Below are positions 18,093 to 63,891 of a stretch of 64,000 nucleotides of DNA, piece by piece. Source of the DNA: Candidatus Omnitrophota bacterium (GTDB taxonomy: Bacteria; Omnitrophota; Gorgyraeia; 1-14-0-20-64-10); the NCBI GenBank assembly GCA_016177405.1, contig JACOVG010000006.1, positions 10,064 through 74,063 of the forward strand, written 5' to 3'. Positions within the stretch are counted from its first letter, which is position 1, and the number at the start of each line of letters is the position of its first letter. The notes beneath the pieces are model-generated. The model was not told the DNA's origin. It saw only the letters and a list, made by a program, of their open reading frames with translations, and searched no databases. A program made the translations under genes and the position numbers.

Positions 18093-18101
18093 CCTTCTCC
18101 C

Positions 18102-22920: not shown

Positions 22921-22921
22921 G

Positions 22922-46866: not shown

Positions 46867-47813
46867 GGGGCCGCCTGGAGGGCGGGCGCCCCCCGGAAGA
46901 ATGGAATCAGATTCTGGACCGCCCGCAGCTCCATCCGCGTCCTGGAGGCCCGGGTAAGCGAGGCGATGTGCGGGGTCAGCAGAACCTGCGGCATATGAGA
47001 CAGCGGGCCCACGTAAGGTTCGGTCTCAAAAACGTCCAGCGCCGCGGAGGAAAGACGGCCCGATTGGAGGGCCCCCACCAAGGCCGCCTCATCCACCAGA
47101 TGGCCCCGGGCCGTGTTGACCAGCCGGGCGCCCGGTTTCATCTGGGCAAACTCCCTGGAGCCCAAGACCGGCCCCTGTCTCGGGTCCCTTGCCGCGTGCA
47201 GGGAAACCAAATCGGACTGCGCCAGAAGGTCAGCCAGCGGCAGATTCGAGACCCCTTCCGGGCGCTGTCCTGCCGGGAGGACCGGGTCGCAGACCAGGAT
47301 CCTGGGCCCAAAGGGGCGCAGGAGTTTTTCCACCGCCTGGCCGACCCGGCCAAACCCGATCAAACCGATGCTCCACTCCGAGAGAAGATGCCCCACCTGT
47401 TTTTTCCAAAGACCCTGATCGAGATTCCTCAAGTGAAGGGGAAAATCCCGCGCCAGGGCCAGGATCATGCCGACCGTGATCTCCGCCACCGGGGCAGTCA
47501 CTTCCTCGGGCGTGGTGAGAACCGCGATCGCAAGTTCGGAAGCCGACGCCAGATCGATGGAATCGGTCCCTGTGCCGCATCGGCTGATCACCTTGAGATT
47601 CTTCAGGGACTGAAGAAGCCTTCTGTCGTAGGGCTCCACACCGGCCACGACCGCATCCGCCCGCGCGAGCAGGGAGGCCATCTCCTCTCCCTTCAAGCGC
47701 CTGCCCAGAGGGTTACGATGAATCTCAAAGCCGGCCTCCCGGAGAAGCTGAAGCGGCCGGTCGTCCGACTCGCCAAATTGCGCGAGCGCCACAAAAACCA
47801 CCGGCTGTTTCAC
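46863..47813 (-). CDS. D-isomer-specific 2-hydroxyacid dehydrogenase (PGDH-like)
   Basis: IGLIGFGRVGQAV NAD-binding motif; catalytic-domain/NAD-domain architecture, 316 aa. Confidence 0.8.
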   Translation of the reverse strand: MKQPVVFVALAQFGESDDRPLQLLREAGFEIHRNPLGRRLKGEEMASLLARADAVVAGVEPYDRRLLQSLKNLKVISRCGTGTDSIDLASASELAIAVLTTPEEVTAPVAEITVGMILALARDFPLHLRNLDQGLWKKQVGHLLSEWSIGLIGFGRVGQAVEKLLRPFGPRILVCDPVLPAGQRPEGVSNLPLADLLAQSDLVSLHAARDPRQGPVLGSREFAQMKPGARLVNTARGHLVDEAALVGALQSGRLSSAALDVFETEPYVGPLSHMPQVLLTPHIASLTRASRTRMELRAVQNLIPFFRGAPALQAAP

Positions 47814-48583
47814 CCCTTCAGCACCTGATGAAGAACCGCCCTCTGAAGGGGATCCTGGTCCAGGAGGTGTTCCACGGCTTTCACCTCGCCTGGGAGGTTG
47901 ATCCCCGCATACCCTCGAGGGAAGGCAATCCCCTGCAGGAGGACGTCGTGCTCCAGGATTCTGGATTGGTCCACCGACTCCAGGGTCTCAAGCGGCGTGC
48001 GGGCAAGTCCAGGATAGCGTTGAAGAAAATCCTGCCGGTAGCCCAAGATCCCCAGGATCTTACGCACCGGCTGCGCCCCGTTGCCGGCCGCCTTCAGGTG
48101 GGAGAAATTCCGGCCGCAAAAGAGTATCCTCCCGGAAACCGAAACGACGCACTTGACAACCGAGGGATCACCAAGCTCGCCAGGGGTTTCCAGAGAGGCC
48201 ACGGCGTTCCAAGCGGCCAGCTCGGGCCGCTGCCCGATGGCCTGAACCAGGCTCTCTAAATCACGAGGCAAAACCAGGATCTCATCCCCTTGAACATTCA
48301 CCACATGGGTGCAGTCCAGCTTCCCCGCCGCCTCCGCCACCCGGTCCGTTGCCGCCGGATGCCTGGAGGAAGTCATCAGCACCCGGCCGCCGGAACGCTC
48401 AACCACTTGGGCGATCTGGCGATCGCAGGTCGCCACCACCACTTCCTCGAAGCCCTTGCACAGCGCTGCCCTGCGGCGGACGTGCTCGATCATGGGGAGG
48501 CCCCGGATCTCCACCAGGGGCTTGCCCGGGAATCGACTGGAGGCCATCCGGGCCGGTATGATGCAGGCCACCCGCGTGCCCAT
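47810..48583 (-). CDS. KdsB-like cytidylyltransferase (CMP-3-deoxy-ulosonic acid synthetase family)
   Basis: ATG 48583 (TAATG overlap with upstream stop): MGTRVACIIPARMASSRFPGKPLVEIRGLPMIEHV matches KdsB IIPARYASTRLPGKPL; ORF-track 139-aa extension is read-through across upstream gene. Confidence 0.75.
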   Translation of the reverse strand: MGTRVACIIPARMASSRFPGKPLVEIRGLPMIEHVRRRAALCKGFEEVVVATCDRQIAQVVERSGGRVLMTSSRHPAATDRVAEAAGKLDCTHVVNVQGDEILVLPRDLESLVQAIGQRPELAAWNAVASLETPGELGDPSVVKCVVSVSGRILFCGRNFSHLKAAGNGAQPVRKILGILGYRQDFLQRYPGLARTPLETLESVDQSRILEHDVLLQGIAFPRGYAGINLPGEVKAVEHLLDQDPLQRAVLHQVLKG

Positions 48584-49344
48584 TACTGGGGCAGGGTCCC
48601 GCAATCCACGTTGAGGCACTGACCGGTGATCGCCGAAGCCTCCGGCGAGGCCAAGAAGTAGACCACCTGCGCCACTTCGTGAACCGTCGGCAGCCGGCCC
48701 AGGGCCGTTTGGGTGGCGGCGAAGGAGGCGAGATACCCGCTCACATCCTCGCCATGGGCGGGCGAAGCGGGCTCGGAAAGAGAGCTCAAGATCTGTTCCG
48801 TCTCCACATAGACCGGGCAGACCGCGTTGACGCGGATCCCTTGGGGCCCAAGCTCCTTGGCCAGGGCCTGGGTGATGCCGTTGACCGCGAACTTCGCGGC
48901 GCAATAAACGCTGTTGTTGGCCGAGCCGCGCTTGCCTGCCAGAGAGGAGACATTGATCAGGGCCCCTCCTTCCTTCAGGGCGGGAGCCGCCGCCGCGCAC
49001 CCCCAGAGGGTCCCCAAGATGCTGGTCTCCAGGATCTCCAAGGCAAACGGCTCGTCAATCTCCGTCAGGCCGCGCCACCTGGAAATCCCCGCGCAGTTGA
49101 CGAATACCTCCAGAGACCCGAATTGCTTAACAACCTTCCCAACAAAATCACGGGCTTGCTCCCGCTGTCGAACCTCCAGGGTAAAGTGAGCGATCGAAGA
49201 TTCCAAGCCGGGGTCCCGGGGCGACCGGGAACCCACGGCCACCCGGTAGCCTCGAGAGGCAAAAAGCTCGGCCACGGCCCGGCCGATCCCCCGGTTGCCG
49301 CCGGTGACCGCCACCACCGGCCGCGATTCTCCCGAAGGAGTCAT
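48583..49344 (-). CDS. SDR-family oxidoreductase
   Basis: VVAVTGGNRGIGRAV; NCAG; YCAAK. Confidence 0.8.
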   Translation of the reverse strand: MTPSGESRPVVAVTGGNRGIGRAVAELFASRGYRVAVGSRSPRDPGLESSIAHFTLEVRQREQARDFVGKVVKQFGSLEVFVNCAGISRWRGLTEIDEPFALEILETSILGTLWGCAAAAPALKEGGALINVSSLAGKRGSANNSVYCAAKFAVNGITQALAKELGPQGIRVNAVCPVYVETEQILSSLSEPASPAHGEDVSGYLASFAATQTALGRLPTVHEVAQVVYFLASPEASAITGQCLNVDCGTLPQ

Positions 49345-50093
49345 AGGGTCATGGCGGTGAACCCGCCGTCCACGGTCACCACGGAACCGGTCACGAAACT
49401 CGAGGCGTCAGAGGCCAGCCACAGGACCGCCCCCACCAATTCCTCCGGCTTGCCGAACCGCCCCGCGGGGGTGTGATTCAGAATCTTGGCCTTCCGGTCG
49501 TCGTCGATGAAGTTTTTCATGCTCCAGGCGGTCGGGAAAAAACCTGGTTTGAGGGCGTTCACCCGGACGTTGCGAGGGGCCCATTCCCGGGCCAGGTTTT
49601 GGGTTAGGTTCAGGACTCCCGACTTGGCGGCCGAGTAGACAAACGCCTTGGAAAGGGGCGGCCCGGCGGAAACCGAGGTGAAATTGATGATAGAACCTCT
49701 GCGCTGGCGGACCATCGTCTCCCCGAAGACCTGGCACCCCAACAGGGTGCCCAGGAAGTTCACCCCCATCACCCGGTCAACTTCCTGGCGCGAAATCTTC
49801 AAAAAGGGGGTGGGGGCGTTGGCCCCGGCGCCGTTGATCAGCAGGTCAATCCGCCCATGCGCCTTAAGGATCTTCTGCCTGCAGCGAATCCAGTCCTCTT
49901 TTCGGGTCACATCGCAGCGGAGATACCCCACCGAGCCCGGCAGCCCCGCTTGACGCGCCTTCTTCTCACCGGCTAAATCCAGCACGGTCACGCGAACACC
50001 CGCCTCATCCAACGCTTGGGAGATGACAGCGCACAGATGTCCCGCGCCGCCCGACACGGCGGCCACCCTGCCGGAGAGATCAGCGTTGTTCAA
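49341..50093 (-). CDS. SDR-family oxidoreductase
   Basis: RVAAVSGGAGHLCAV; INGAG; YSAAK; start ambiguous (TTG 50093 or TTG 50159). Confidence 0.75.
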   Translation of the reverse strand: MNNADLSGRVAAVSGGAGHLCAVISQALDEAGVRVTVLDLAGEKKARQAGLPGSVGYLRCDVTRKEDWIRCRQKILKAHGRIDLLINGAGANAPTPFLKISRQEVDRVMGVNFLGTLLGCQVFGETMVRQRRGSIINFTSVSAGPPLSKAFVYSAAKSGVLNLTQNLAREWAPRNVRVNALKPGFFPTAWSMKNFIDDDRKAKILNHTPAGRFGKPEELVGAVLWLASDASSFVTGSVVTVDGGFTAMTL

Positions 50094-51192
50094 GGGGCGC
50101 GGCCTCCAACGGACCCGCGGCAGGGATCGGCTGCGGGAGCCGTTCGCCGATGTATTCAAAATAAGGGTTGTTGGCCACCTTCTCGTTGAAGAAGAAGGCC
50201 CGCCGGGGATAGAGGTAAGGGGCCGAGAAGATGGGGCACACGGCGAAATGGAGCCGGCGGCGGGTGGGAATCCAGAGGGGATAGTCCGCCACGGTCAGGT
50301 CGGTGTCGTACGTGGGCCGCGATTGAATCCTGTTCACCAGAAAGAGGAAACGGGCATTCTGGACAGGGGCCGAGTCGGTGTAGAAGCTGAACCATTCCGG
50401 GGACATCTCCCCGAAGGAAGCGCAGTTGAAGACCAGGTCCACCGCCTCTGGCGCCAACCCGGCGAATCGCGGACAGGGCAACAGAACAAAGTCATACTGC
50501 CGGATCCAGCTGCGGGTCAGCACAGGCTGCCGGAGGACCTCGCGGATCCCGGCCACGCGGGCCTTTGGCAGCCACCTCTTCAGGAAGTAGTGGGCCAGGA
50601 GCAGCTGCTCGGAGAAATCGGCCAGGACCTGGTGGGTTCCCCTATACTCCTGGCTCACCAGACCGGAAAAGATACCGTAGCTTGAGCCGATGTCCAGAAC
50701 CACGTCGCCGGCCGCCAGGCGCTGCCCGAGCTTCTCCTTAAGGACCGCCTGGCACCAGATGTGCTTGAGCCACCGGTAGGTCACCACGAAGCCCTTGCGC
50801 CGGTAAACGAAGGGCTCCCCCACCGGCGTGCAGGGATACTTTCGAAGCAGGTCCTCCGCGGCGGCGCTGCCTTGGATCACCTGAAGACACTCCTCCAGCG
50901 TCTGGCGGACCCCGCGGCGGCCTCCCCCCAGGAAATTCCTCGGGTCGGGACGGTTGATGTGAAAGGTGGGGTCATCCGGAATGAAGATCCGAAGGCGGCG
51001 AAATCGCCGGAAGGTCTCGGGTTCGATGGAACCGTCTGGCCGCAGGAGCCGTTTGGGCTCCTCCGTGATCAGCGACCGCCATTTTGGGATCAGCGCCTGG
51101 GCAGGCAATCCCAGTAGTCCGGCTCCGCGGGCCGCCTGGGCATCGGCCTGCACCTGGGCCAGCACCTCCTCCTCCCGAAGGCGATCAGGCAT
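50080..51192 (-). CDS. Non-canonical methyltransferase-like protein (putative sugar O-methyltransferase family; degenerate Rossmann motif)
   Basis: ATG 51192 (MPDRLREEEV); VVLDIGSSYGIFSG degenerate motif I; architecture paralogous to 52579..53568. Confidence 0.5.
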   Translation of the reverse strand: MPDRLREEEVLAQVQADAQAARGAGLLGLPAQALIPKWRSLITEEPKRLLRPDGSIEPETFRRFRRLRIFIPDDPTFHINRPDPRNFLGGGRRGVRQTLEECLQVIQGSAAAEDLLRKYPCTPVGEPFVYRRKGFVVTYRWLKHIWCQAVLKEKLGQRLAAGDVVLDIGSSYGIFSGLVSQEYRGTHQVLADFSEQLLLAHYFLKRWLPKARVAGIREVLRQPVLTRSWIRQYDFVLLPCPRFAGLAPEAVDLVFNCASFGEMSPEWFSFYTDSAPVQNARFLFLVNRIQSRPTYDTDLTVADYPLWIPTRRRLHFAVCPIFSAPYLYPRRAFFFNEKVANNPYFEYIGERLPQPIPAAGPLEAAPLEQR

Positions 51193-51928
51193 TCTTAACG
51201 CAGAGAAACCCGCAGAAGTTGTACCACTGGAAGAAGGTCTCGGCGATTTGAAAGCCGCATTTCCGGAAAAGCTCCAGGTTCTCGTCCAACTTGAAGGGAA
51301 CAAGAACGTTCTCCAAGGCCTCCCGCTTGCGTGCGATCTCCTCGTGGGTGTAGCCATTCCTCTTCTTGAAGGCGTAGTAGCGTTCGATGAAGAACTGGTT
51401 CATCTCGCCCTGGCGCGTGAGGATCTTCTCGGTCACGATGAAGGCGCCGCCGTTGACCAGCGACTCATAAATGTGCCTCACGAGGCGATCCCGATGCAGG
51501 GGGCGCACAAACTGCAGCGTCCAGCACAGCGTCACAACGCTCGCCTTGTCCAGACACAGCTCCGGATCGCTCACGTCCCGGCAGTGGATCTCCACCGTCT
51601 CCTGAAGCTTGCTTTCCGCCACGCGGGCCTTCGCCCGCTGGACCATGGGCTCCGAGGAATCGTAGCCCACCAGCCGGGCGCTCTGACCCTGCAGGGCGCT
51701 GGCAACGTTGACGAGGGTGGTCCCGGTCGAGCAGCCCAGGTCGTAAACGCGCGTGTTGGGGACCCAGAAATGCCTGGCCAGCTCCTGGATCAGGTGCTGC
51801 TGTTCCCGGTAGAAGGGAACGCTGCGCTCGAGCATATCGTCGAATACGGCGGCCACCTCGCTGTTGAACTCAAAGTCGGTCGCCCGAGAGGCGGTGCCTT
51901 GAAAGATCTGGTCCCTGCTGTCAGCCAT
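51185..51928 (-). CDS. CmoA-family protein (carboxy-S-adenosyl-L-methionine synthase homolog)
   Basis: ATG 51928 with AGGAGGA SD; full-length collinear similarity to E. coli CmoA: ...AAVFDDMLERSVPFYREQQHLIQELARHFWVPNTRVYDLGCSTG... / ...KKRNGYTHEEIARKREALENVLVPF...FQWYNFCGFLCVKNA vs CmoA ...[21 protein letters not shown]...FQCFNFGSLVALKA. Confidence 0.75.
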   Translation of the reverse strand: MADSRDQIFQGTASRATDFEFNSEVAAVFDDMLERSVPFYREQQHLIQELARHFWVPNTRVYDLGCSTGTTLVNVASALQGQSARLVGYDSSEPMVQRAKARVAESKLQETVEIHCRDVSDPELCLDKASVVTLCWTLQFVRPLHRDRLVRHIYESLVNGGAFIVTEKILTRQGEMNQFFIERYYAFKKRNGYTHEEIARKREALENVLVPFKLDENLELFRKCGFQIAETFFQWYNFCGFLCVKNA

Positions 51929-52577
51929 GGGGGTCCTCCTGCTTGCTAAGCAAAAACATCGCGTCCACGTTGTCACCCTCTTTGTACGGGTACCGTTCCT
52001 CCTTCAGGAGTTTGAGATCCGGAAAGGATTCCCGGTAAAGACGGGCAAAATCGCCTTTCCAAAGGAGATCCTTGCGCCCCTGGTACAAAACCGTTTCGTA
52101 CCGGTCCGAGAAGTACTCATAGCCCCAGATCCACCCGCGGCTGCAGCGCCGGATCTCCAAGAGCGCGCGCCGCAGGTCCGAGGGAGACACGTGGATCAGG
52201 ACACCGGAGGTAAAAACCAGATCAAAGGAGCCTGCCTGGAAGGGGATCTCCAGGGCCGAACCCTGAACGATCCGAAGGCCCCGGGATCTGGTCTTGGCCT
52301 TTCGCGCGGCATCCCCCTGCAGCTCAATACCGCAGAGGTTCGTAAAGCCCATCCTCTGAAGGCACAAGAGCTGAATTCCAATGTTGCAGCCGACCTCCAG
52401 GATCCGCGCCGCCCGGTCCAGGCCTCCGATGAACCGCTCGTTGAGTTCGGTCCTGGTCCATCCCAGACGGCTCCGGAAACGCTCCTCTAACTCTTCTACC
52501 GAGATCTCGTTGCGGTCGGTATAGTCCCTCCCGAACTCCCCCGCCCACTGGGCCATTTGAGCGGTCTGGGAAGCCAT
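51921..52577 (-). CDS. Class I SAM-dependent methyltransferase (pseudaminic-acid-cluster-associated methylase-like)
   Basis: ATG 52577 (MASQTAQMAQWAGEFGRDYTDRN); ILEVGCNIGIQL motif I; VLIHVSPSD. Confidence 0.65.
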   Translation of the reverse strand: MASQTAQMAQWAGEFGRDYTDRNEISVEELEERFRSRLGWTRTELNERFIGGLDRAARILEVGCNIGIQLLCLQRMGFTNLCGIELQGDAARKAKTRSRGLRIVQGSALEIPFQAGSFDLVFTSGVLIHVSPSDLRRALLEIRRCSRGWIWGYEYFSDRYETVLYQGRKDLLWKGDFARLYRESFPDLKLLKEERYPYKEGDNVDAMFLLSKQEDPHG

Positions 52578-53610: not shown

Positions 53611-55263
53611 TCAAGACTGCCCTCCGCCCATTGGCACCCGATACCGGATCTTCCTCTGGGCCCCGGGTAGGAGCTCCCAGTCGGCCTCAAGATCAGCTTG
53701 GGCATTCAGTTCGGACAGGTCGAAGTAACGGGCGCTCCCCATGAAATGGAGATACCCTTGCCGGCAGTGCCTCACGAGAGCAGGCTCCCGGGAGAGATTC
53801 TCCAGGTGGTCATCGATCACAAGCTCCGAGGCGGTCCAGTGAATGGTCCGTTCCATTCGAAAGGGAAGTTTTGAGCTCCTGAAGATGAGGCGCTTGGCCA
53901 TCAGCCGCTTCAAGGCGAGGTTGGCCGGCATGAACCAGCCGAAGGCAAGCTGGTAAACCCTAAGCAGCAGGAAGAAAAGGGGCCTCTGGCGCAGGCGGGT
54001 GGGTCGCTGGGCGCAGGCACGGAAGGTCATACGGTCGCCCTGCCGTTGGGTCCGGCCATCCATGACGCCGGTAAAACCCGCGCTGCGGCCCAGCCGGATA
54101 AAATAGCCAGCACTGGAAAAGAGGACCCTGTTCGCCTCCTCGTCCTCCACTTGCACCATCCCTCCGTTCAGGCGCCCCCGAGCTGTTCCCCTCCCCCTCT
54201 GAAGGCAGAAGAGAGTGGAGGCGGGGCAGAAGAAATCGGAAGCATGGGCGTGCCGCGCCGGCCCCGGCGATTCTTGGGTTTGCCCCCCCGCCGCAAGAAA
54301 TGCCCGGACATAGTCCGAAAGAAGAGGAACGAGGTTCTGGAGATCTGTCGTCCGGTTGGTGATGCCCAGATCCCTCTGGATGACGGCGCGAACCGCCGCG
54401 CGCAGATCCGGCCCCGCTTCAAACCTCGCGGCCAGCTCGAAACCGGACGGAAACAGCAGCTTGGTCCCCCGGCAGCCGTAGCAACCGCCGTTGCCGCTGA
54501 CCGGGCTTAGGAAATGGCTTGAAAACTCCAAGGCCCTCGCGAGAGCCTTCCGCAGCCGCGGGTCCTCCAAGCGCGCCGAGCACGCCGCCAGATGCGCCAC
54601 ACCTAGGGTTTGATAACCAGGATCCGCGCCCAGGTACTCAAAGAAAGCGCCGGAGGCGAGCTGCCGTTGGAGAACCTTCTCGATCAGGAACAGCGCCCTC
54701 TGCCGGTAGCCGGACTCCCCCGTCAGGGCGTTCAGATCCAGAAGCCCCGCCGCCATCCCCAGTTGATGGTTTGAATTGAACCCGTGCCGCTCCTCGTGGC
54801 GCAGCAGGAATCGCCCTGCCCTGCCGCACATCTTTCGAAATTGCTCTTGGGTTTTGGCGCCAAGATTCCCCTTCAGCAGTTCGGCGGCCAGATGCGCGTC
54901 GTGCACCAGCAGGCCCGCCGTCACCACAGAGTTGTCGTTGGGGTAGCACTGGGTGAAGGCGCCGTTGGTGTACTGTTCTAAGAGACAAAACGAAAACGCC
55001 TGCTCGATCCATCGCAGGAGGCTTCCGTTGTGGAAATAAGGGTTGCGGGGCGCCTGGTATTGGTAAAGAAAGCTTAGCGGCAGGATCAGCCTCTGAAGAT
55101 CCATGTTGGAGAAATCGCTGGCGCCCCAGGCCCAATGCAGGCGGTCAAAACTCCCGAAGGCGCTGGAAAACGGCTCCCGGTCCAGGTGGGAAAGCACCTG
55201 GGGCGCCGCCTCCAGCAGGCGGTCGGCGTAAAGATTCGAGGGAGAGCTGTCCGTGGGCGGCAT
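53611..55263 (-). CDS. Hypothetical protein (550 aa), possibly alpha/alpha-toroid (heparinase II/III-like) polysaccharide-modifying enzyme
   Basis: Long ORF without signal peptide; helical-repeat character; assignment speculative. Confidence 0.45.
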   Translation of the reverse strand: MPPTDSSPSNLYADRLLEAAPQVLSHLDREPFSSAFGSFDRLHWAWGASDFSNMDLQRLILPLSFLYQYQAPRNPYFHNGSLLRWIEQAFSFCLLEQYTNGAFTQCYPNDNSVVTAGLLVHDAHLAAELLKGNLGAKTQEQFRKMCGRAGRFLLRHEERHGFNSNHQLGMAAGLLDLNALTGESGYRQRALFLIEKVLQRQLASGAFFEYLGADPGYQTLGVAHLAACSARLEDPRLRKALARALEFSSHFLSPVSGNGGCYGCRGTKLLFPSGFELAARFEAGPDLRAAVRAVIQRDLGITNRTTDLQNLVPLLSDYVRAFLAAGGQTQESPGPARHAHASDFFCPASTLFCLQRGRGTARGRLNGGMVQVEDEEANRVLFSSAGYFIRLGRSAGFTGVMDGRTQRQGDRMTFRACAQRPTRLRQRPLFFLLLRVYQLAFGWFMPANLALKRLMAKRLIFRSSKLPFRMERTIHWTASELVIDDHLENLSREPALVRHCRQGYLHFMGSARYFDLSELNAQADLEADWELLPGAQRKIRYRVPMGGGQS

Positions 55264-55270
55264 GCTCTCG

Positions 55271-57595
55271 CTAACGCCTCACCGCAAACAGCAGGAGGAA
55301 AAAGCAGGCTCCCGCTCCGATGGCAAGGAGCGTGAGCCAAGCCGACTCCTTCGCTAAGAAGAGGACCCGGGAGCTTCCCTCCGGAACCTGGAGGACCCAT
55401 CGCAAGCCGGAGGGTTCCAAGGCAAGCGAGGTCTCCTTGCCGCTTACGTCCACCGCGCGAGCCTCCATGTTCCTTAAGTCCAGATGAACCGAGAGCTTCC
55501 CGCCCTTGGAGGCCGGGAGCGTTACCGCCGCGCCGTACGGCGTCTCCCCCAAAGCCAGCGGAGTCGCCAAATCATCCAGAAGATAGGCGACCGGCTTGGC
55601 GGCGGCGTTCTCATACACCGCCGCGTAGGGTCCCTCAAAGACCCGCGTGAACTTTTGAGGATGAAGGCGCTGAAGGTCAAAGCGGCTTATCCAATATCGA
55701 ACGCCGTACTCCTCAAAAATTTCCTCCTCCGGACGGACAATCACACTGCGGTAGTTCAGAATCTGGGCTTCCGGGGTCCCCGGACGCCGCCAAAAGGGGT
55801 TGCCCTGTCTTCTTAATTCGGCATGAACCGGACCGTAAAAGTGAAGAGGCGGCAAGACCCACGCCAGCCCCTGACGCAGGCACGGTTCATTCTTTCGGAG
55901 GTGATAGACCACCCCCTCTTCCCTTTGGGAGGCCAGCGCCCAGAACCCCTGCCAGTTTCCACGCGCCAGCTCCATCTCCCCTGACACCACCACCCCTACC
56001 CGGTACCGATAACCCGGGATTTTCTCCTGGAGGAACCGGAGTTCCGGCGGGGGGGACAGCATCGCCGTGAGCTCCGGCGGCCTCCGGTACCAGCCTGCCC
56101 CATATCCGTAACCAAAGGCCGGGGCGGCGATGGACAGGCTCAAAGCGGCCAGCAGCGCCGCGCGACCCATCGTCCGCGGCGTTCCTGATCTTCTTAAAGC
56201 CAGAAAAGAGAAATAACCCCCCAAGCCAAGAACAATCCCCGCGGCCAAAACCCATGTCCCGTTAAACAAGCTGTGGAAAGCCGTGCCGGATCCGAGCAAT
56301 CCTCGTTGAGAAGCCACGCCGAAGAGCCGATCCTCTCCCAGGAACCACAGCGCGCCTCCCGCGGTCACCGCGAGAACCAGGATCACCCGGTAGAGTCTGT
56401 GCAAAAAACGAATCGTCCTCGTCCGCGTGTCGGCAAACCATGCCAGGTTCACCCCTGCCGCCACCACCCCGCCGCTTAAAAGCGGGAAGACGAAGAGACG
56501 GGAAAATCCCGCGTCCCGAATGAGCACCGAGGGAATCTCGAGGGAACTGACCGCCATCATCAAAAGGCAGTAGCCCGCGGCCCCCGCGGCCAAGATGCGG
56601 CCGGATCCGGCTTGGGACTGCCAAAGCGCCAAGAGGCTGGGCACAAGCAGAAAGGATCCGAAAAGCCAGCTGTTGGGCGGCTGGAAATGATCCATCCAAC
56701 CCAATTTTTCAAAGAGGACCGGAACCGATTCCGGGACCGGAAACCCAAGCCCCAGGAATTGCGGGAGGGAAGACGGGGCAAACCCCCACCCCAGGGGCGT
56801 GAGCGCCTCCCGGGTGGAGAATCCCCAACCCACCGTAAAGAGCATGGGTGCCGCGATCGGCAGCCAGCCTAAGGCGGTCAGGGGCCCCACACGCGTCAGG
56901 AACGGTCGAACGGTTGACGCCCAACGCTCTCTTTGAAGAAAGGCCATCCCAAGGATGCCTCCCAGCAGGTAAGCCTGCGTGGGAATCAGGGCCTGGGACT
57001 GGGTCACGTACGGCTGAAGGGCATTGGCAAGAATGCACCCAACGAGGTGCCGGCGCTTCGCGGTTCTGACCCAAAGCCCGTATTCTCCAAGAGAAACCCC
57101 CAGGAGAACGGACCCCGCTGTCCAGTAGACCTTGGCGGTCCACTCGAGCCAGGAGGTCGCGAAGAAGGCGGTCATCGCCCCCGCGAGCGCGGCGGTCCTC
57201 GAGACCCTCCCCAGTCTGCGGCTGTAGAAGTAGACGACCCCGAAAAGGGCGGCGTGCACCCCAGCGATCAGGATCCCCCAGCCGGTCGGGCTGGCTCCCA
57301 GAGCGATGGAGATGAGCCGGATGAGGTGGAGGGGGTGGTATTTGATGTCGTTACCCCACAGCCTGGTGTCGGTCGCCAAATCAAAGTAATGAAAGAATCG
57401 TCCGCCGGGCCTGGCGTCCCCCATCGAAAAGAGCATGTGGGTTACGGGGTCGCCCTCCGTGCTGGTGACGAAACTTCGGGCCGACAGGAGGATGGGGCCA
57501 TAGAAGACCAGCAGGCACAACGCCAGCACCGCAAGAGGGAGAATGGCCACCGAGGCGCCCTGAGACGCTTGAGGCGAATGGGACGGCTTTGCCAT
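55271..57595 (-). CDS. Large polytopic membrane protein (774 aa), YfhO/GT-C-like putative lipid-carrier-dependent glycosyltransferase
   Basis: ~12+ hydrophobic segments in first ~450 aa followed by ~300-aa soluble C-terminal domain; architecture and genomic pairing with a DPM1-like GT2 (59847..60539) resemble YfhO/CsbB systems. Confidence 0.5.
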   Translation of the reverse strand: MAKPSHSPQASQGASVAILPLAVLALCLLVFYGPILLSARSFVTSTEGDPVTHMLFSMGDARPGGRFFHYFDLATDTRLWGNDIKYHPLHLIRLISIALGASPTGWGILIAGVHAALFGVVYFYSRRLGRVSRTAALAGAMTAFFATSWLEWTAKVYWTAGSVLLGVSLGEYGLWVRTAKRRHLVGCILANALQPYVTQSQALIPTQAYLLGGILGMAFLQRERWASTVRPFLTRVGPLTALGWLPIAAPMLFTVGWGFSTREALTPLGWGFAPSSLPQFLGLGFPVPESVPVLFEKLGWMDHFQPPNSWLFGSFLLVPSLLALWQSQAGSGRILAAGAAGYCLLMMAVSSLEIPSVLIRDAGFSRLFVFPLLSGGVVAAGVNLAWFADTRTRTIRFLHRLYRVILVLAVTAGGALWFLGEDRLFGVASQRGLLGSGTAFHSLFNGTWVLAAGIVLGLGGYFSFLALRRSGTPRTMGRAALLAALSLSIAAPAFGYGYGAGWYRRPPELTAMLSPPPELRFLQEKIPGYRYRVGVVVSGEMELARGNWQGFWALASQREEGVVYHLRKNEPCLRQGLAWVLPPLHFYGPVHAELRRQGNPFWRRPGTPEAQILNYRSVIVRPEEEIFEEYGVRYWISRFDLQRLHPQKFTRVFEGPYAAVYENAAAKPVAYLLDDLATPLALGETPYGAAVTLPASKGGKLSVHLDLRNMEARAVDVSGKETSLALEPSGLRWVLQVPEGSSRVLFLAKESAWLTLLAIGAGACFFLLLFAVRR

Positions 57596-57609: not shown

Positions 57610-58440
57610 CTACGGCCGGGAAGCGGCAGGCGGACCCGGAACGGGAATGACCCTAGAGAGAACGAGATCGACCAGCCTTGGAAAAACCCCATGAATCCGA
57701 ACGAGCACCTCGGAGGGGGTCCATTGGATCACCGTGCGGGATCTGCGCTCGATTCCCCGAATGATCTTCTTGGCGATCCTGGCAGGGTCTTGCCTTTTCA
57801 CGGTTTGATCAAAACCGACCTTGAGGTTCCCGTGCCGGGTGGTGGTTTGGTACAGATTGGACTCCGTGGGGCCCGGTGATACCATCATCACGTTGATGCC
57901 GAAGGGGGCCAGCTCCAGCCGGAGGCCCTCGGTGAGGGCGTTCAAGGCGAACTTCGTGACGCAGTAGCTGACCTTCCCCGGGAAGGCCCTTCGGCCCATC
58001 GTGGTGGAGAGGTTCACGATCTGGCCGTCCCCGGCGCGCTTCATCCCGGGGATGAGCGTCTGGATCAGAGCCAGCGGCCCATAAAAGTTCACGTCGTGGC
58101 AGGCCTTGAAGTCCTCCAGGGGAACGTCCTCCACCAGACCCTCGACCCCCCGGGCGGCCGAATTGATCAGCACATCGACCGCTGCCAGCTCCTGCTGGAT
58201 GCGTTGGGCCGTCTGGCGCGTTTGGCCGGCATCGGCCAAATCGCAGACGTAGGTCCTGGCGCTGCCTCCCATCCCTTGAATCTCCTGGCCTATTCGCGAC
58301 AGGCCCTGGGCATCCTTATCCAGCAGGGCCAGCCTCGCTCCTTCCCGCGCGGCCTCGTGGCTTAGGGCCCTGCCGATCCCGGAGGCCGCGCCGGTGATCA
58401 GAACCACCCTGCCCTTAAGCGGGTACAGAGGTTTTCTCAT
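57610..58440 (-). CDS. SDR-family oxidoreductase
   Basis: GRVVLITGAASGIGRAL; NSAA; YCVTK. Confidence 0.8.
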   Translation of the reverse strand: MRKPLYPLKGRVVLITGAASGIGRALSHEAAREGARLALLDKDAQGLSRIGQEIQGMGGSARTYVCDLADAGQTRQTAQRIQQELAAVDVLINSAARGVEGLVEDVPLEDFKACHDVNFYGPLALIQTLIPGMKRAGDGQIVNLSTTMGRRAFPGKVSYCVTKFALNALTEGLRLELAPFGINVMMVSPGPTESNLYQTTTRHGNLKVGFDQTVKRQDPARIAKKIIRGIERRSRTVIQWTPSEVLVRIHGVFPRLVDLVLSRVIPVPGPPAASRP

Positions 58441-59797
58441 GGCGCGAGTCCACGGGGTGAGCCCCGGGTGCCGGCGAAGGGTGAAGCTCGAAGTAGCGGT
58501 TGACCACCTCCGCGATGTATTCCATTTGCCTCAACGAAAAAGAGTTGTGGATGGGCAGGAAAACCGTGTTTTGCTTGATCCGCCGGGCGCCCGGAGTGGA
58601 GGCGGCATAGGCGGCAAAGGCCGGTTCCTCGGAGCAGAGGGCCAAGGCATAGCCCCCGTTGTCAATGCCGGCCAGCAAGAGGAACATCTGGAATTGTCCG
58701 GGCTCCTCCGGAACGACCAGCGGGTAATGCCAATAGACGTTTCGATTCGCTCCCTCATCGACGGAGGAGGGGACCCACCGGCGCGCCTGGCGGCTCAACC
58801 GCGCCGTGAGATGGTGCGCCAACCTTCGGCGCTCGTCGGTCAGCGCCCTGCTTCTCTTCAGTACCCGAAGAAGGAGATCGCTTTGCAGATCGCACAGGTA
58901 CGTGAAGGCCGCCGGCGGCATTTCGCTTCGGAGGATACGGGGGTTGGCCTCAAACGGGAGAATTTCGGCGGCTCCCTTGCGGGGATCGCGCTTGGCCTCC
59001 TGAAGCGCGTTGATCATCGCGGGCTTGCCCCGGCAGACCGCCAAGACCGCGTGGTACGTCAACAGCGAGAAGACGGTTCGATGGGTCGCCAGATTGAACT
59101 TCAGGTTGGCCAAGATCTGACCCAGGAGAAAGCCCTTATCGGGCCGGGTGAGAAGCCCCTGGGCCAGGGAGCGGATCTCCGCGGCCATCCGGTCATCGTT
59201 GGTCAGCACGACCCCTCCCGCCAGCGACGCGAGGGTTTTTCCGATGGAAAAGCTTCCCACCGCGGCCGCCCCAAGCGTTCCGAGAAGCTGGCCCCCGGCG
59301 CGCGCGTCCCAGTTCTGCGAGATGTCCTCCACAAGAGCCAGACCTGCCCGGCGAGCCTCTTCGGCGATTGCCTTAAGATCCTGCGGGACCAATCCCGCCA
59401 GATGGGTGACCAGGAGGACGCGGCTTCTGGGGGTGATCTTCCGCTTAAGGTCCTCCAGATCGATGTTTTGGGCCTCTGGGGAGAGATCGACAAAGACCGG
59501 CTTAAGCCCGAGGGTGTGGATGGCGTTGACCATGTCCGGAATGGTGAGAGGGGTCATGAGGACCTCGTCCCCCTCCCGAAGCTTCAGGACCTTTAAGACC
59601 AGATGGAAGGCGAGGCGGCAGCTCGAAACCGTCTGCGCGTGCCTAAACCCGCAATGCGCGGCCAGTTCCGCTTCGGCCCGCCCTGTTTTCTCCCCGCGCC
59701 CAAGGCGGCTGAAGGGCAGCAACGCCAGGGCCCTCAACAATCCGAAGGTCGGCAGATACAGCCTGGCGCGCGGGATCTTGACGAATGGAACGCTCAT
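58415..59797 (-). CDS. DegT/DnrJ/EryC1/StrS-family aminotransferase (long form)
   Basis: ALVEDISQNWDA...GAAAVGSFSIGKTLASLAGGVVLT (PLP-Lys). Confidence 0.75.
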   Translation of the reverse strand: MSVPFVKIPRARLYLPTFGLLRALALLPFSRLGRGEKTGRAEAELAAHCGFRHAQTVSSCRLAFHLVLKVLKLREGDEVLMTPLTIPDMVNAIHTLGLKPVFVDLSPEAQNIDLEDLKRKITPRSRVLLVTHLAGLVPQDLKAIAEEARRAGLALVEDISQNWDARAGGQLLGTLGAAAVGSFSIGKTLASLAGGVVLTNDDRMAAEIRSLAQGLLTRPDKGFLLGQILANLKFNLATHRTVFSLLTYHAVLAVCRGKPAMINALQEAKRDPRKGAAEILPFEANPRILRSEMPPAAFTYLCDLQSDLLLRVLKRSRALTDERRRLAHHLTARLSRQARRWVPSSVDEGANRNVYWHYPLVVPEEPGQFQMFLLLAGIDNGGYALALCSEEPAFAAYAASTPGARRIKQNTVFLPIHNSFSLRQMEYIAEVVNRYFELHPSPAPGAHPVDSRHEKTSVPA

Positions 59798-59846: not shown

Positions 59847-60539
59847 TTACCTTTCAAGGACCAACACCCTAAGGTGAGTGAAGGCGTACTTGAGAAGCTT
59901 CCACCCCGAAAGCTTCCGGGCGTTGCGTTCTGGGGGCCACCGAAGAATGGCGGGCAGATCCAAGGAACGGAAACCGCGCGCGTAGGCCTTCACCAGGATC
60001 TCCAAATGAATCTCCTTGTCGTCGGATCTCAAGTTCAGGGTTTCCAGAACCTCTCGCCGGTACGCTCGGGTCATCCCTGAAACCGCCGTGGTCTTACGAC
60101 CCACGGCCGCGCTCAAGGAGCGGTTGGCCAAACGGCTCAACAGCCTCCGGCCCCAAGGAACCCCCTCCATCCGGCCGCCGGCCATATGAACCGAGGCGAT
60201 GGCGATGCCGGTCTCACCCGTGCGGACCGACTGGAAGAGTGACCTCAAGATATCGGTCCCCCAGGTCAGATCCGCTTCGGTCGAGACGATGGTTTGGCCC
60301 CTGGCGGCGGAAAACCCCTGACGCAGGGCGTACCCCCTGCCCCGATTGGGGTGATGGCTCAACAGCCGGACCTCCGGGTAATCCTTTGAGACGGCAGAAA
60401 CCAGAGCGGCCGTGCCATCGCTGCTCCCATCATCAATGGCGATCAGCTCCCAGGCGCAGCCCCAAGCCTTCAGCGACTGGATCAGCCGGCGGAGGTTCTC
60501 CCGAATGGCCGGTGCCTCGTTGTACATCGGCACCACCAC
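59847..60539 (-). CDS. GT2 polyprenyl-phosphate sugar synthase (DPM1/CsbB-like)
   Basis: GTG cluster at 60533-60539 (VVVPMYNEAPAIRENL) 8 nt after upstream stop; IAIDDGSSDGT; short DPM1-like GT2. Confidence 0.7.
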   Translation of the reverse strand: MVVPMYNEAPAIRENLRRLIQSLKAWGCAWELIAIDDGSSDGTAALVSAVSKDYPEVRLLSHHPNRGRGYALRQGFSAARGQTIVSTEADLTWGTDILRSLFQSVRTGETGIAIASVHMAGGRMEGVPWGRRLLSRLANRSLSAAVGRKTTAVSGMTRAYRREVLETLNLRSDDKEIHLEILVKAYARGFRSLDLPAILRWPPERNARKLSGWKLLKYAFTHLRVLVLER

Positions 60540-60546
60540 GGACAGT

Positions 60547-61671
60547 TCAGGCGGGAAGGGAGGGCTGGACGTGGCAGGATTCCTGCAGGAGGTGCTGGAC
60601 AATCCGGGAAGCGGCTTGGCCGTCCCAAAGGGGCGGCGGGCTTCCCCGGAAAGAGGAGCCCCCAAGCTCCAAGGCCTCCCGGCAGGCGAGCCGGATGGCC
60701 TCTGGGGAAGTTCCGGCCAGGCGGTTGGTTCCCAGGCGGAGGGTCACCGGCCGCTCGGTGGTTTCCCGAACCGTCACGCAGGGGATCCCCAAATAGGTGG
60801 TTTCCTCTTGGACCCCTCCGGAATCGGTGACCACGAGAGCCGCCTCCCGCATCGCCTTCAAGAAATCGAGGTAGCCCAACGGTTCGGTTCGAAGAATCCC
60901 GGACAAAGGGCCGGCCTGGAGCGCCGTTGCCAGCAGCGCCAAGGATCGATCCGTCCTGGGGTGAACCGGAAAGAGGACCGGCATCCGGGTCCGGAGCCCA
61001 TCCAGGGCTCCCAAGATCCTGGAGAGGGTCCCGGGGTCGTCGACGTTCTCGGGCCGATGCAGGGTCAGCAGGGCGTAGGACTTGGGCCGAAGGTTCAGCC
61101 CGCACGGTCCCTGGGCGCGGTCCAGCCGGTCAAGTCCCCAAATCAGAGAGTCGATCATCACATTGCCCACCTGGCGGATCCGTTCCTCCGGGACCCCTTC
61201 CCGGCGGAGATTCTCGTCCGCTTCGTCCGAGTGGGTGAACAGCAGCCTCGAGAGACGGTCGGTCTCGATTCGATTGATCTCCTCCGGCATCCGCCGGTCA
61301 AAGGAGCGCAGGCCCGCTTCCACGTGAGCCACGGGTATCCCACGCTTGCTGCAAGCCAAGGCGCAGGCCAAGGTGGAATTGACATCCCCCACCACAATCA
61401 CCCAGGCCGGCTCTTCCTGCTCGAGAACTCGCCCAAACCCCTCGAGGATTCCGGCCATCTGCCGGTCGCGCGGCCCGGAACCGACCCCCAGGTTGATCAC
61501 AGCCGGCGGCACCTCCAAGTCCTTGAAAAGGCGCTCCGACATCTGGAGGTCGTAGTGCTGGCCCGTGTGGACCAGCCGGTGAGAAACGCCGGGGGCGTCC
61601 TTCAGCACCCTCGCAAGCGGCGCCACCTTCATCACGTTGGGCCGCGCCCCGACCACCGAGATGATTTTCAT
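60547..61671 (-). CDS. UDP-N-acetylglucosamine 2-epimerase family (WecB non-hydrolysing / NeuC hydrolysing)
   Basis: ATG 61671 (MKIISVVGARPNVMKVAPL); HTGQHYD and HVEAGLRS signature motifs. Confidence 0.85.
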   Translation of the reverse strand: MKIISVVGARPNVMKVAPLARVLKDAPGVSHRLVHTGQHYDLQMSERLFKDLEVPPAVINLGVGSGPRDRQMAGILEGFGRVLEQEEPAWVIVVGDVNSTLACALACSKRGIPVAHVEAGLRSFDRRMPEEINRIETDRLSRLLFTHSDEADENLRREGVPEERIRQVGNVMIDSLIWGLDRLDRAQGPCGLNLRPKSYALLTLHRPENVDDPGTLSRILGALDGLRTRMPVLFPVHPRTDRSLALLATALQAGPLSGILRTEPLGYLDFLKAMREAALVVTDSGGVQEETTYLGIPCVTVRETTERPVTLRLGTNRLAGTSPEAIRLACREALELGGSSFRGSPPPLWDGQAASRIVQHLLQESCHVQPSLPA

Positions 61672-61690: not shown

Positions 61691-63211
61691 TCAATGAAAA
61701 ACGGGCTCGGCAAGGTTTTGGCGGACTTCGAACGTCAGGCGGGGTTTTTCGGGCAAAGGGATCTTGGGGTTCAGGACGGTGGACAGGTCGAATTGAAGCC
61801 ACTTCTCCCATTCGGCGCTGTGGCCGCTCCGGCGCAGCCGCTCAAAAAAGAAAAAGGCAAATGCGGCCGCCAGATCCCGCAGCATGGCGAGGTTGCGCAA
61901 TCTCTTGAGCTGTTTCACAATCGCGCGCGGCCTGGAGTAGAACTTCCAGAAGGCGAACCTCTCGAAGCGGTTGACCTCTTCGGCGCTTAAGTGGTTGAGC
62001 CGGAAAACCACTTCGTTTTGTCCGTAGCGGCTGTACTCCTCGTGCAGCAGCCGCCCCTCCGACTTGAACTGCTCGAAGATCACCGTGCCCGGGTAAGGGG
62101 TCATGACCGACAATTGGAAGAAATCCAGATCCAGATCTATGGCAAATTGCAGGGACTCCCGCAGGGTGTCTTTCGTCTCATTGACATGTCCGATGATGAA
62201 GGAGCCCCGCACCTCCAGGCGGTTCCGGTGGGCCACCTCCACCACGCGCTGGTAGACCTCGTGCTTGATCGGTTTTCCGATGGCCGCCATCAGGGTCTTG
62301 CTGCCCGATTCGATGCCGATCATCACCTGGTGGCAGCCGGCCGCGGCCAACGCCTTCGCCATCTCCTCATTGAACATGTCGCCCCGCACGCAGCAGATCC
62401 AGCTTAGGTCGATCTTTTCCTCCGCCATGCGGCGGCACAGATCCAGAACCGCGCGCCGGTTGACCGTGAAGGTGTCGTCGTAGAAATAGATCTGCCGGAT
62501 GCCGTATTCGGCGCGCAGGCACTTTAAAAGCTCGATCATCTTCTCGACGCTCCGTGAGCGCAGGGTGGTGTTGGCGGAGTTGCAGAAGGTGCATTTGCCC
62601 GGGCAGCCCCGCGTCATGAGGACATTCATCGCCGGCAGGTCCCGGTAGCTGGAGACCGGCGGAAAGTAATCGTCGAAATCCACCAGATGATAGGCGGGCA
62701 GAGGGTAGCGGTCCAGATCCATCTCTATCTTGCGCGGTGGATTGTGGACCACTTGGTCTCCCACGCGGTAGCTCAAGCCTTCGATCTTCTCCCGGGCGGT
62801 CCCCCGCGCGAGCTCGGTCATCAGCATCTCCCCGTCGCCCCGGCCCACCGCGTCGATGGAGGGGTTGCGAAGCATCTCTTCGGGATGGGCCTCGGCGTGA
62901 ACCCCTCCTGTCACAACGGTCACGTCGGGAACCTCTTCCTTACAGATGGCGGCGATGTAGTTGGCCGGCACGTAATGGGGGCTTAGGACCGTGATCCCGA
63001 CCAAGCGTGGGCGCAGCCGCCGGACAATGGCGCGGAAACCACCGGGGCCCATCTCGCGGGCGTGGCAATCCACCACGTGCACCTCGAAGCCCTGCGCCTC
63101 CAGGCAGGAGGCCATCGACAATATCCCCAACGGGGGGAGCATCTTCTTGAGCTTCGAGCGGAAGCTGTAGGTGACCCACGGCGGATAGACGAGCAAGACG
63201 TCCGCCCTCAC
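61691..63211 (-). CDS. Cobalamin (B12)-binding domain radical SAM enzyme (class B)
   Basis: CPGKCTFC radical SAM motif; B12-binding N-terminal domain (VLLVYPPWV...LGILSMASCLEAQGFEVHVVD); probable GTG start 63211 with GGGAG SD 9 nt upstream (ATG 63334 alternative would overlap HAD gene by 85 nt). Confidence 0.8.
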   Translation of the reverse strand: MRADVLLVYPPWVTYSFRSKLKKMLPPLGILSMASCLEAQGFEVHVVDCHAREMGPGGFRAIVRRLRPRLVGITVLSPHYVPANYIAAICKEEVPDVTVVTGGVHAEAHPEEMLRNPSIDAVGRGDGEMLMTELARGTAREKIEGLSYRVGDQVVHNPPRKIEMDLDRYPLPAYHLVDFDDYFPPVSSYRDLPAMNVLMTRGCPGKCTFCNSANTTLRSRSVEKMIELLKCLRAEYGIRQIYFYDDTFTVNRRAVLDLCRRMAEEKIDLSWICCVRGDMFNEEMAKALAAAGCHQVMIGIESGSKTLMAAIGKPIKHEVYQRVVEVAHRNRLEVRGSFIIGHVNETKDTLRESLQFAIDLDLDFFQLSVMTPYPGTVIFEQFKSEGRLLHEEYSRYGQNEVVFRLNHLSAEEVNRFERFAFWKFYSRPRAIVKQLKRLRNLAMLRDLAAAFAFFFFERLRRSGHSAEWEKWLQFDLSTVLNPKIPLPEKPRLTFEVRQNLAEPVFH

Positions 63212-63249
63212 TTTTTTCGGCTCCCAGGTGATAACGTTCTTCCGGAAAC

Positions 63250-63891
63250 TTATCGGGATGCCCCCCTGAAATCCCGGATGACCGGAAAGGAACCGTTCCT
63301 TAAGCCGCGGCAATGAACCCCAATGAAGCGGCATCCGGCCTTGTGGGCGGCCCGGGCGTCCTCCGGAGTGTCACCAAAAAAAAGGATTTGGGATGGTTTG
63401 AGATTCTTCTTCATACATAACTTGTTTATCCACAATGATTTATCAACAGGCGCGCCGCGTACCATCTGGAAGAATGGCCGCCAGCCGCGCGCAGACAGAA
63501 TCTTAAGCAGGATGGGGTGGGGGGTCGCCGAAAGCAGGGCGGTCAGATGCGTCGGGTAAACGGCGGCCAAGAAGGCTGAAGCCCCGGGAATCTCCGGAGC
63601 CTGAATGATGGGCTGGGTCGTTGCCTCCTCAAAACGCTTCAAGAGGTCTTTCCTTACGCCCGCGGTGTACGGCCGCTTAAGAATAGAGCGATACACATGG
63701 CGGAATTTCTCCCACCGGGGCGTGTGCGGATAACCGTTGCAGTAGTTGAGAATCTCCTTCAAGTGCTTGGCCTCATCCAAAAAGCAGGTCTTAAACGCCC
63801 GCCTCTTGATCGGATTGGAATCCACCAGCGTCCCGTCAAAGTCGAAGACCAAAGCCTTGGCTTTTTTAAGCCAGGCCCGCAAGTCAAGCAC
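63250..63891 (-). CDS. HAD-superfamily hydrolase (phosphatase)
   Basis: ALVFDFDGTLVDS (DxDGT motif I), LFFGDTPEDARAA (motif IV GDxxxD); GTG start 63891. Confidence 0.7.
   Translation of the reverse strand: MLDLRAWLKKAKALVFDFDGTLVDSNPIKRRAFKTCFLDEAKHLKEILNYCNGYPHTPRWEKFRHVYRSILKRPYTAGVRKDLLKRFEEATTQPIIQAPEIPGASAFLAAVYPTHLTALLSATPHPILLKILSARGWRPFFQMVRGAPVDKSLWINKLCMKKNLKPSQILFFGDTPEDARAAHKAGCRFIGVHCRGLRNGSFPVIRDFRGASR

Follow-up and report, generated by a model that had tools for sequence, protein, structure and literature searches.

A widespread and uncharacterised class B radical SAM family in glycan-biosynthetic loci, and its possible role in tailoring a cell-envelope sugar

The stretch of DNA considered here (hereafter the window: 64,000 nucleotides of a Candidatus Omnitrophota genome, contig JACOVG010000006.1) encodes a radical S-adenosylmethionine (SAM) protein of class B type. 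It is an ordinary-looking member of the class B radical SAM superfamily, and it belongs to an uncharacterised family. The chances appear about even that this widespread family tailors a sugar during the synthesis of cell-envelope glycoconjugates, while the broader statement that it is a glycan-tailoring enzyme of class B type is highly probable. The gene and its conserved parts are the following.

61691..63334, minus strand: class B-type radical SAM gene, the longest open reading frame (ORF), 547 aa, ATG start
62810..63151, minus strand: N-terminal, Rossmann-type B12-binding domain PF02310 (residues 62-175), which includes the LPPLG segment typical of class B
62141..62620, minus strand: radical SAM core PF04055 (residues 239-398)
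62582..62605, minus strand: CPGKCTFC motif (CX3CX2C) of the [4Fe-4S] cluster (residues 244-251)

Both domains score well above their Pfam cut-offs (70.3 bits against 32.1 for PF02310 and 82.3 bits against 29.5 for PF04055). The profile search thus bears out an earlier note on this DNA, which had described an independent class B enzyme with CPGKCTFC and had taken a detectable B12-binding domain as a test of its view. The cluster motif is invariant as RGCPGxCTFCNSA in 16 family members, and the family alignment shows further conserved blocks, namely LPPLG, FYDDTFT, AGCH, EVRxxFIxG, TPYPG, and a C-terminal RLT-x-E-x-RQ tail. An AlphaFold2 model built from 16 family sequences (mean predicted local distance difference test score, pLDDT, 83.8) shows a Rossmann domain of alternating strands and helices, then a barrel, and at the C-terminus a helical region. 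When this model is compared with the PDB by Foldseek, AprD4 ranks first (TM scores 0.66/0.73, 24% identity over 483 columns), followed by TsrM, MgmA, CysS, TokK, and OxsB as full-length fold matches. The gene is therefore real and has the architecture of a class B radical SAM enzyme: a cobalamin-type Rossmann domain, a [4Fe-4S]/SAM barrel, and a helical C-terminus.

The GenBank model of the gene (P0001, “radical SAM protein”, from a Candidatus Omnitrophica metagenome-assembled genome) is 100% identical, comprises 506 aa, and begins at GTG 63211; the coordinates given in the earlier note, 61691..63211, are the extent of this model. In two orthologues with 75% identity (L004 and L009), an ATG start immediately precedes KFRRNVITWEP, and at the corresponding place the window has ATA (63251..63253, minus strand). 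The N-terminal segment is conserved across phyla in the family alignment. Since FRKNVITWEPKK is still encoded in frame upstream of GTG 63211, and since the window differs from the L004 and L009 orthologues in this region at third codon positions, the true start is probably ATG 63334 or TTG 63313, overlapping the 3′ end of the preceding HAD gene, and the GenBank start probably truncates the protein. The sequence GGGAG precedes GTG 63211 but falls inside the conserved W-E-P codons and is therefore not independent evidence for a ribosome-binding site. No cobalamin riboswitch or other Rfam element was found in the 64-kb window.

A scan of one genome per GTDB species for members of the family confirmed 279 loci (at least 279 species genomes) in more than ten phyla, including Omnitrophota, Planctomycetota, Myxococcota, Elusimicrobiota, Alpha- and Gammaproteobacteria, Acidobacteriota, Chloroflexota, Bdellovibrionota, Nitrospinota, and others. 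Among the proteobacterial hosts are Coxiellaceae, Magnetococcales, and the cultured Paramagnetospirillum marisnigri SP-1. In the last of these (NZ_LWQT01000066.1, around 249-251 kb), the family gene runs in the same direction as a second B12-type radical SAM gene, a GT2 gene, and an AsnB gene. Each of the 120 best database homologues shows 49% identity or more to the protein, and most are unnamed; some bear the automatic JGI labels BchE or YgiQ, of which BchE, given to many family members, is a mis-annotation. A tblastn search of plasmids found no orthologues, the best match being at most 31% identical.

None of the curated NCBIfam models is passed by the protein. The highest score belongs to HpnJ (TIGR03471, 199.7 bits against a cut-off of 577.6, with a match over nearly the full model), followed by BchE (TIGR02026, 182.5 against 481.35), the Sden_1168 P-methyltransferase (164.7 against 575), ApyD (148.7 against 750), and AprD4 (NF033070, 125 against 500, the match being confined to the core and C-terminus, residues 205-460). 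Scores under the cut-off rule out membership in the HpnJ, BchE, and AprD4 families and likewise in PhpK/Sden_1168, MgmA, HpnR, BzaD, and the ladderane family. Pairwise comparison gives 28% identity (167 bits) to a MoeK5-like protein of Streptomyces clavuligerus, 27% (145 bits) to an annotated HpnJ, and 28-29% (about 180 bits) to uncharacterised B12-type radical SAM proteins encoded as co-located paralogues in two related loci, L004 and L005. The family is a clade of its own, at about the same distance from each of these reference enzymes. In sum, it is distinct, orthologous, widespread, and outside every curated family.

The neighbourhoods of the family were compared in 83 non-redundant loci, in which ORFs were called and clustered, and hidden Markov models (HMMs) of the recurrent clusters were searched back against all ORFs. 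The neighbour counts given here are HMM-based; a Pfam census of adjacent ORFs was set aside because length-greedy picking yields spurious ORFs in GC-rich DNA. The most frequent neighbour within 5 kb of the radical SAM gene is a small GT2 glycosyltransferase (31 of the 83 loci). Next come an AsnB-like amidotransferase (17/83) and a NAD-dependent epimerase/dehydratase (16/83), and then DegT (9/83), homologues of a protein designated P550 and described below (9/83, rising to 13/83 within 10 kb), the UDP-glucose/GDP-mannose dehydrogenase family (8/83), and a DprE1-like FAD_binding_4 protein (6/83). As an internal control, the inner 5 kb were set against the outer 5-10 kb in the 34 loci with full 10-kb flanks: the GT2 was found in 15 of them in the inner zone and in 3 in the outer one, and the AsnB-like protein in 10 and 3, respectively. 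The family thus has a glycan-biosynthetic context with GT2 and AsnB-type partners. In one Magnetococcales locus (L006, strain HHB-1, 14277..19000), a lasso-peptide-like set consisting of Asn_synthase, Transglut_core3, PqqD, and a sulfotransferase lies directly downstream of the radical SAM locus on the opposite strand; it is unrelated and could confound AsnB neighbour counts.

The partner signal is concentrated in a closer subfamily of 19 loci whose proteins are at least 46% identical to the query: 12 have the GT2, 10 the AsnB-like protein, 4 a UDP-sugar dehydrogenase, and 4 a P550 homologue. In the orthologous locus L004, an AsnB-like gene stands immediately upstream of the radical SAM gene, and nearby there are genes for a UDP-sugar dehydrogenase, a GT2, and a 58% identical orthologue of the AsnB-like protein of the window. 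Distant members, mostly from Planctomycetota, lie in operons composed of Gfo/Idh/MocA, GT2, radical SAM, and DegT genes. Moreover, an HpnL-like LPG_synthase_TM membrane protein directly adjoins the radical SAM protein in four loci (L017, L018, L025, and L050), DprE1-like FAD enzymes and short-chain dehydrogenases/reductases (SDRs) accompany the GT2 in several loci, and a DegT or NAD-dependent epimerase/SDR gene follows directly downstream of the radical SAM gene in several others.

The surroundings of the gene in the window itself are listed below in the order of transcription, together with the AsnB-like gene, which stands apart from them.

63250..63891, minus strand: HAD-superfamily hydrolase (generic HAD-IA), upstream of the radical SAM gene
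60547..61671, minus strand: non-hydrolysing UDP-GlcNAc 2-epimerase of WecB type, downstream of the radical SAM gene
59847..60527, minus strand: small soluble GT2 glycosyltransferase
58415..59797, minus strand: DegT/DnrJ/EryC1-family sugar aminotransferase
57610..58440, minus strand: SDR (Pfam)
55271..57595, minus strand: polytopic membrane protein of 774 aa with a large C-terminal soluble part
53611..55263, minus strand: P550, a soluble protein of 550 aa
30975..32840, minus strand: AsnB-like glutamine amidotransferase, 36% identical to a MoeF5-like protein and with homologues encoded right next to the radical SAM gene in related loci

The order of the HAD hydrolase, radical SAM, and epimerase genes on the minus strand is as the earlier note had it, with the epimerase ATG lying 19 nt past the radical SAM stop codon. 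The epimerase had been read as a member of a NeuC/WecB family, and of this the WecB half holds: it scores 303 bits with the WecB model TIGR00236 (cut-off 210) and 80 bits with the NeuC model TIGR03568 (cut-off 235.9), so that, judged by these models, the adjoining epimerase is of WecB type and not NeuC. The placement between the two genes had been offered as a functional clue. This did not survive the comparison of loci, since none of the 83 loci contains a match to the window HAD protein at E < 1e-6, and the WecB protein is matched in one of them (L020, a Hyphomicrobiales genome). In Omnitrophota-type loci, the gene content is common and the order is shuffled; together with the lack of conservation of HAD and WecB, this makes their adjacency weak functional evidence. 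The best matches of the window GT2, though weak, are polyprenyl-phosphate sugar synthases (ArnC with 73.6 bits, PpgS, and a dolichyl-phosphate hexose transferase). The 774-aa membrane protein has no Pfam or NCBIfam match, and its 56% identical orthologue lies near the radical SAM, AsnB, and GT2 genes in L004; the protein is a candidate for a novel GT-C-like transferase or polymerase.

P550 has no Pfam family, and no hydrophobic segments, signal peptide, or membrane segment were found in it. Its AlphaFold2 model (pLDDT 83.2) consists of an (alpha/alpha)-toroid followed by a beta-sandwich, and in the PDB this model comes closest to glycosaminoglycan, chondroitin AC, PL17 alginate, and xanthan lyases, heparinase III, and human dermatan-sulfate epimerase 1. 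A role as a membrane GT-C partner is ruled out by the absence of hydrophobic segments and by the lyase-type fold. P550 homologues recur near the radical SAM gene in other phyla, usually beside the small GT2. The enzyme classes among these matches are known for removing the proton at C5 of a uronic acid. Taken with the UDP-sugar dehydrogenase and AsnB-type amidotransferase partners, this suggests that the conserved cassette acts on a uronic-acid-type residue, and P550 itself may serve in the cytoplasm as a uronyl epimerase or eliminase.

The 64-kb window is, in essence, a single glycan locus of about 57 genes, all on the minus strand, with a GC content of 62.5%. The radical SAM gene had been placed at the far end of this locus, but the same-strand cluster runs at least 10 kb past the window end on the longer contig (L007, 1..10000), where it encodes an HpcH/HpaI aldolase, a GT1, a methyltransferase, a TAL/FSA aldolase, a SIS protein, a Gfo/Idh/MocA oxidoreductase, and an 829-aa GT2. 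In addition to Pse/Leg-like enzymes, three DegT aminotransferases, and at least eight class I methyltransferases, the window contains the following features.

16533..18092, minus strand: the other class B radical SAM gene, used as the comparison sequence
7830..8585, 13368..14147, and 47810..49000: three CTP_transf_3 cytidylyltransferases
22922..23749: NeuB, about 38 kb from the radical SAM gene under study and nearer the other one
24455..25123: PIG-L deacetylase
36630..37859: NDP-hexose C-methyltransferase
37846..39081: PMT_2-type GT-C protein
43261..45513: PMT_2-type GT-C protein, a GT2 fusion
29038..30882: ABC exporter
2872..4302: amidase
2334..3041: GNAT protein

Some longest-ORF calls in the window overlap by 100-400 nt (22318..23130 with 22922..23749, 48583..49344 with 47810..49000, and 51185..51976 with 50080..51357), and the true starts of these ORFs are probably further downstream.

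The two class B radical SAM proteins of the window were said to be distinct in sequence, and the pairwise comparison agrees: 61691..63334 and 16533..18092 are homologues with 25% identity (96 bits, E 3e-25), which rules out recent duplication. Only three ORFs of the window bear CX3CX2C, these two and a SPASM enzyme (14946..15959). Next after 16533..18092 on the minus strand come a small methyltransferase-like gene (15956..16564) and then this radical SAM/SPASM gene. In the related Omnitrophota-type loci L004 (11560..19020) and L005 (4575..12477), there are three to four B12-type radical SAM genes along with radical SAM/SPASM genes per glycan locus; such loci represent an unusually radical-SAM-rich glycan pathway.

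How the conserved partners might act together can be outlined as follows. The small GT2 would place a hexose-type sugar, such as an aminosugar or a uronic acid supplied by WecB or a UDP-sugar dehydrogenase, on a carrier, plausibly a membrane lipid such as polyprenyl phosphate. A lipid carrier is plausible because of the polyprenyl-phosphate matches of the GT2, because of the DprE1/DprE2-like and HpnL-like partners, and because the radical SAM enzymes of moenomycin and hopanoid synthesis, the two analogous systems, both act on lipid-anchored monosaccharides; nevertheless, a lipid-anchored substrate is put forward here with reserve, as a proposition that is rather more apt to fail than to hold. 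The radical SAM enzyme would cleave SAM reductively, and the resulting 5′-deoxyadenosyl radical would abstract hydrogen from an unactivated sugar carbon. The most probable outcome would then be the transfer of a methyl group from methylcobalamin to that carbon, i.e., C-methylation as by MoeK5, GenK, and Fom3, given that methyl transfer is the reaction of most characterised class B enzymes (PMC9204698, PMC12931638). By this analogy, C-methylation comes somewhat short of an even chance. Finally, the partner enzymes (the AsnB-like amidotransferase, DegT, and SDR) would amidate or aminate the same residue.

Several observations weigh against this picture of a cobalamin-dependent enzyme that tailors a lipid-linked envelope sugar. 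In the window, the AsnB-like gene lies about 29 kb from the radical SAM gene, no UDP-sugar dehydrogenase was found among the annotated ORFs, and no membrane segment is predicted in the GT2, for which a lipid acceptor is suggested by one line of evidence, the weak similarity to ArnC and PpgS. The family neighbourhoods are heterogeneous, many Planctomycetota loci being devoid of any partner family and one locus (L003) of glycan context altogether. As the MoeK5-like protein and HpnJ are no more similar to the protein than the paralogues are, the analogy with these enzymes is one of gene sets and not of orthology. Cobalamin binding is predicted from two sources, the profile match and the modelled fold, and AprD4, which is the best solved-structure match both by sequence (PDB 6FD2, E 2.5e-28) and by fold, has a Rossmann-like domain yet binds no cobalamin (PMC12931638); a Rossmann-like domain in this sequence space can therefore be without cobalamin. 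The top curated-model matches, HpnJ and BchE, are non-methylases. For the same reasons, the “methylation-type” step that had been ascribed to the protein is an assumption.

The last two points lead to the other chemistries that have to be weighed. The enzyme might carry out an HpnJ-like, non-methylating rearrangement or ring contraction of a lipid-linked aminosugar, e.g., to a cyclitol-type unit, in which cobalamin would not be a methyl donor. In favour of this scheme, HpnJ is the best curated match over nearly its full model and is followed by BchE, both being non-methylases (PMC9204698); the GT2 and HpnL-like LPG_synthase_TM partners mirror the arrangement of hpnI, the gene for an LPG-synthase-domain protein, and hpnJ; and the PIG-L deacetylase is encoded in the window. 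However, the score is far under the HpnJ cut-off, the identity to an annotated HpnJ is 27%, hopanoid context is absent, the HpnJ scheme has no place for AsnB and UDP-sugar dehydrogenase partners, and a MoeK5-like methylase is slightly more similar (167 against 145 bits), which leaves such a rearrangement unlikely. Somewhat less likely again is a cobalamin-independent dehydratase or deoxygenase of AprD4 type, which would convert a vicinal diol into a deoxy-keto sugar for subsequent DegT amination or SDR reduction. The rank of AprD4 among solved structures and its freedom from cobalamin speak for it, as do the DegT and SDR genes that follow within two genes in the window and the DegT or NAD-dependent epimerase/SDR genes directly downstream in several loci. 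On the other hand, the AprD4 model gives 125 bits against a cut-off of 500 and matches residues 205-460 only, the N-terminal domain is highly conserved and scores more than twice the B12-binding cut-off, and the first Foldseek rank may partly reflect similar length. Moreover, wherever DegT adjoins the radical SAM gene, a Gfo/Idh/MocA oxidoreductase is present as a ketone source; its occurrence with DegT in the Planctomycetota operons means that the radical SAM enzyme is not needed for the ketone there and weakens the idea that it supplies DegT with one.

Least supported is the reading of the earlier note itself, according to which a methyltransferase acts on a nonulosonic-acid precursor delivered by the adjoining HAD protein and 2-epimerase. 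It is true that the window encodes NeuB, three CTP_transf_3 cytidylyltransferases, and Pse/Leg-like enzymes, and that L004 and L005 carry NeuB or cytidylyltransferase genes within 10 kb. But the nonulosonic link was drawn because the epimerase was read as NeuC-like, whereas it is WecB; the nonulosonic-acid genes lie about 38 kb away, closer to the other radical SAM gene; HAD and WecB are found in 0 and 1 of the 83 loci, respectively; and NeuB or cytidylyltransferase genes are absent from the vicinity of most family loci in other lineages. A nonulosonic-acid precursor is thus very improbable, while the wider suggestion in the same note, an aminosugar-type precursor, is still compatible with the data.

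If the preferred reading, the tailoring of an envelope sugar, is correct, it would have some bearing on bacterial surface chemistry. Class B radical SAM enzymes catalyse chemically hard reactions, and few of them have known substrates. Those acting on sugars come almost all from antibiotic pathways (GenK, GenD1, MoeK5, and Fom3). A conserved family residing in the envelope-glycan loci of many uncultured and some cultured phyla would suggest that ordinary cell-surface polymers contain C-methylated or rearranged sugars and would link surface structure to the cobalamin supply. In the most specific form of the reading, given at the end, surface glycoconjugates would contain C-branched or amidated sugars of a new class, and part of the envelope chemistry would be B12-dependent. 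Aside from this, two misleading annotations are corrected, “BchE” for family members and NeuC-like for the epimerase, and a testable gene set emerges (the radical SAM protein, GT2, the AsnB-like protein, and the lyase-fold protein) together with a cultured carrier, Paramagnetospirillum marisnigri SP-1. A full-text search of the literature returned nothing relevant on this gene combination.

Among the known systems with which the family can be compared, BchE, the anaerobic Mg-protoporphyrin IX monomethyl ester cyclase, is the second-best curated match, but the score is under the cut-off, the context consists of glycan genes without bacteriochlorophyll genes, and the hosts of the family include non-phototrophs. 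AprD4, the radical SAM 1,2-diol dehydratase of apramycin biosynthesis, resembles what is envisaged for the family in having an aminosugar substrate and a downstream reductase partner; unlike AprD4, which is free of cobalamin and whose model is far from being passed, the protein has an N-terminal domain that passes the B12-binding profile. HpnJ has been proposed to contract the glucosamine ring of bacteriohopanetetrol glucosamine and is not a methylase (PMC9204698). A Caballeronia plasmid carries annotated hpnI (GT2), the gene for a lysylphosphatidylglycerol-synthase-domain protein, and hpnJ together, and both partners, a GT2 like HpnI and an LPG_synthase_TM protein, also stand beside members of the present family. 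HpnJ is the best curated match as well, though at 199.7 bits against 577.6 and at 27% identity, and no hopanoid genes (hpnI/hpnK or squalene-hopene cyclase) were found among the annotated ORFs of the window.

MoeK5 of moenomycin synthesis methylates a lipid-linked uronic acid. On the S. clavuligerus plasmid pCLA1 (L089, 1424323-1449543), a moenomycin-like set lies in a stretch without annotated PLSDB features, in the order ABC transporter, NAD-epimerase, AsnB, a 411-aa protein, an AsnB-like protein without the GATase domain, and a B12-type radical SAM protein. We take this order to match moeE5-moeF5-moeGT1-moeH5-moeK5 of the moenomycin cluster; the pCLA1 radical SAM protein is called MoeK5-like from gene order and Pfam content only. 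Reviews class MoeK5 as an sp3-carbon (Csp3) methyltransferase, its function having been established through a knockout (PMC12931638, PMC8950095); the amidotransferase MoeH5 has a galacturonate carboxyl as its target (PMC8778134). The two-domain architecture of the MoeK5-like protein is the same as that of the protein studied here, and the moe-like set of pCLA1 has its likeness in the GT2, AsnB-like, NAD-epimerase, and UDP-sugar dehydrogenase genes that recur in the family. In contrast, the identity of 28% (167 bits) is no closer than that to unrelated paralogues and is below orthologue level, the glycosyltransferase partner of the family is a small GT2 and not MoeGT1, and the family is found in envelope-glycan loci of Gram-negative phyla, whereas MoeK5 belongs to an actinomycete antibiotic cluster. 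An AsnB-type protein, a uronic-acid-forming or -epimerising enzyme, and a glycosyltransferase occur together in about half of the closer-subfamily loci; in the window itself, the AsnB-like gene stands about 29 kb off, and no UDP-sugar dehydrogenase was found among the annotated ORFs. In its most specific form, which is offered as a tentative and, in all its parts, doubtful proposal, the family would be a hitherto unrecognised envelope-glycan counterpart of MoeK5 and HpnJ: a cobalamin-dependent enzyme, spread over more than ten phyla, whose substrate, a lipid-anchored uronic acid or aminosugar, is C-methylated or rearranged after a small GT2 has acted and alongside AsnB-type amidation and a cytoplasmic lyase/epimerase-fold protein.

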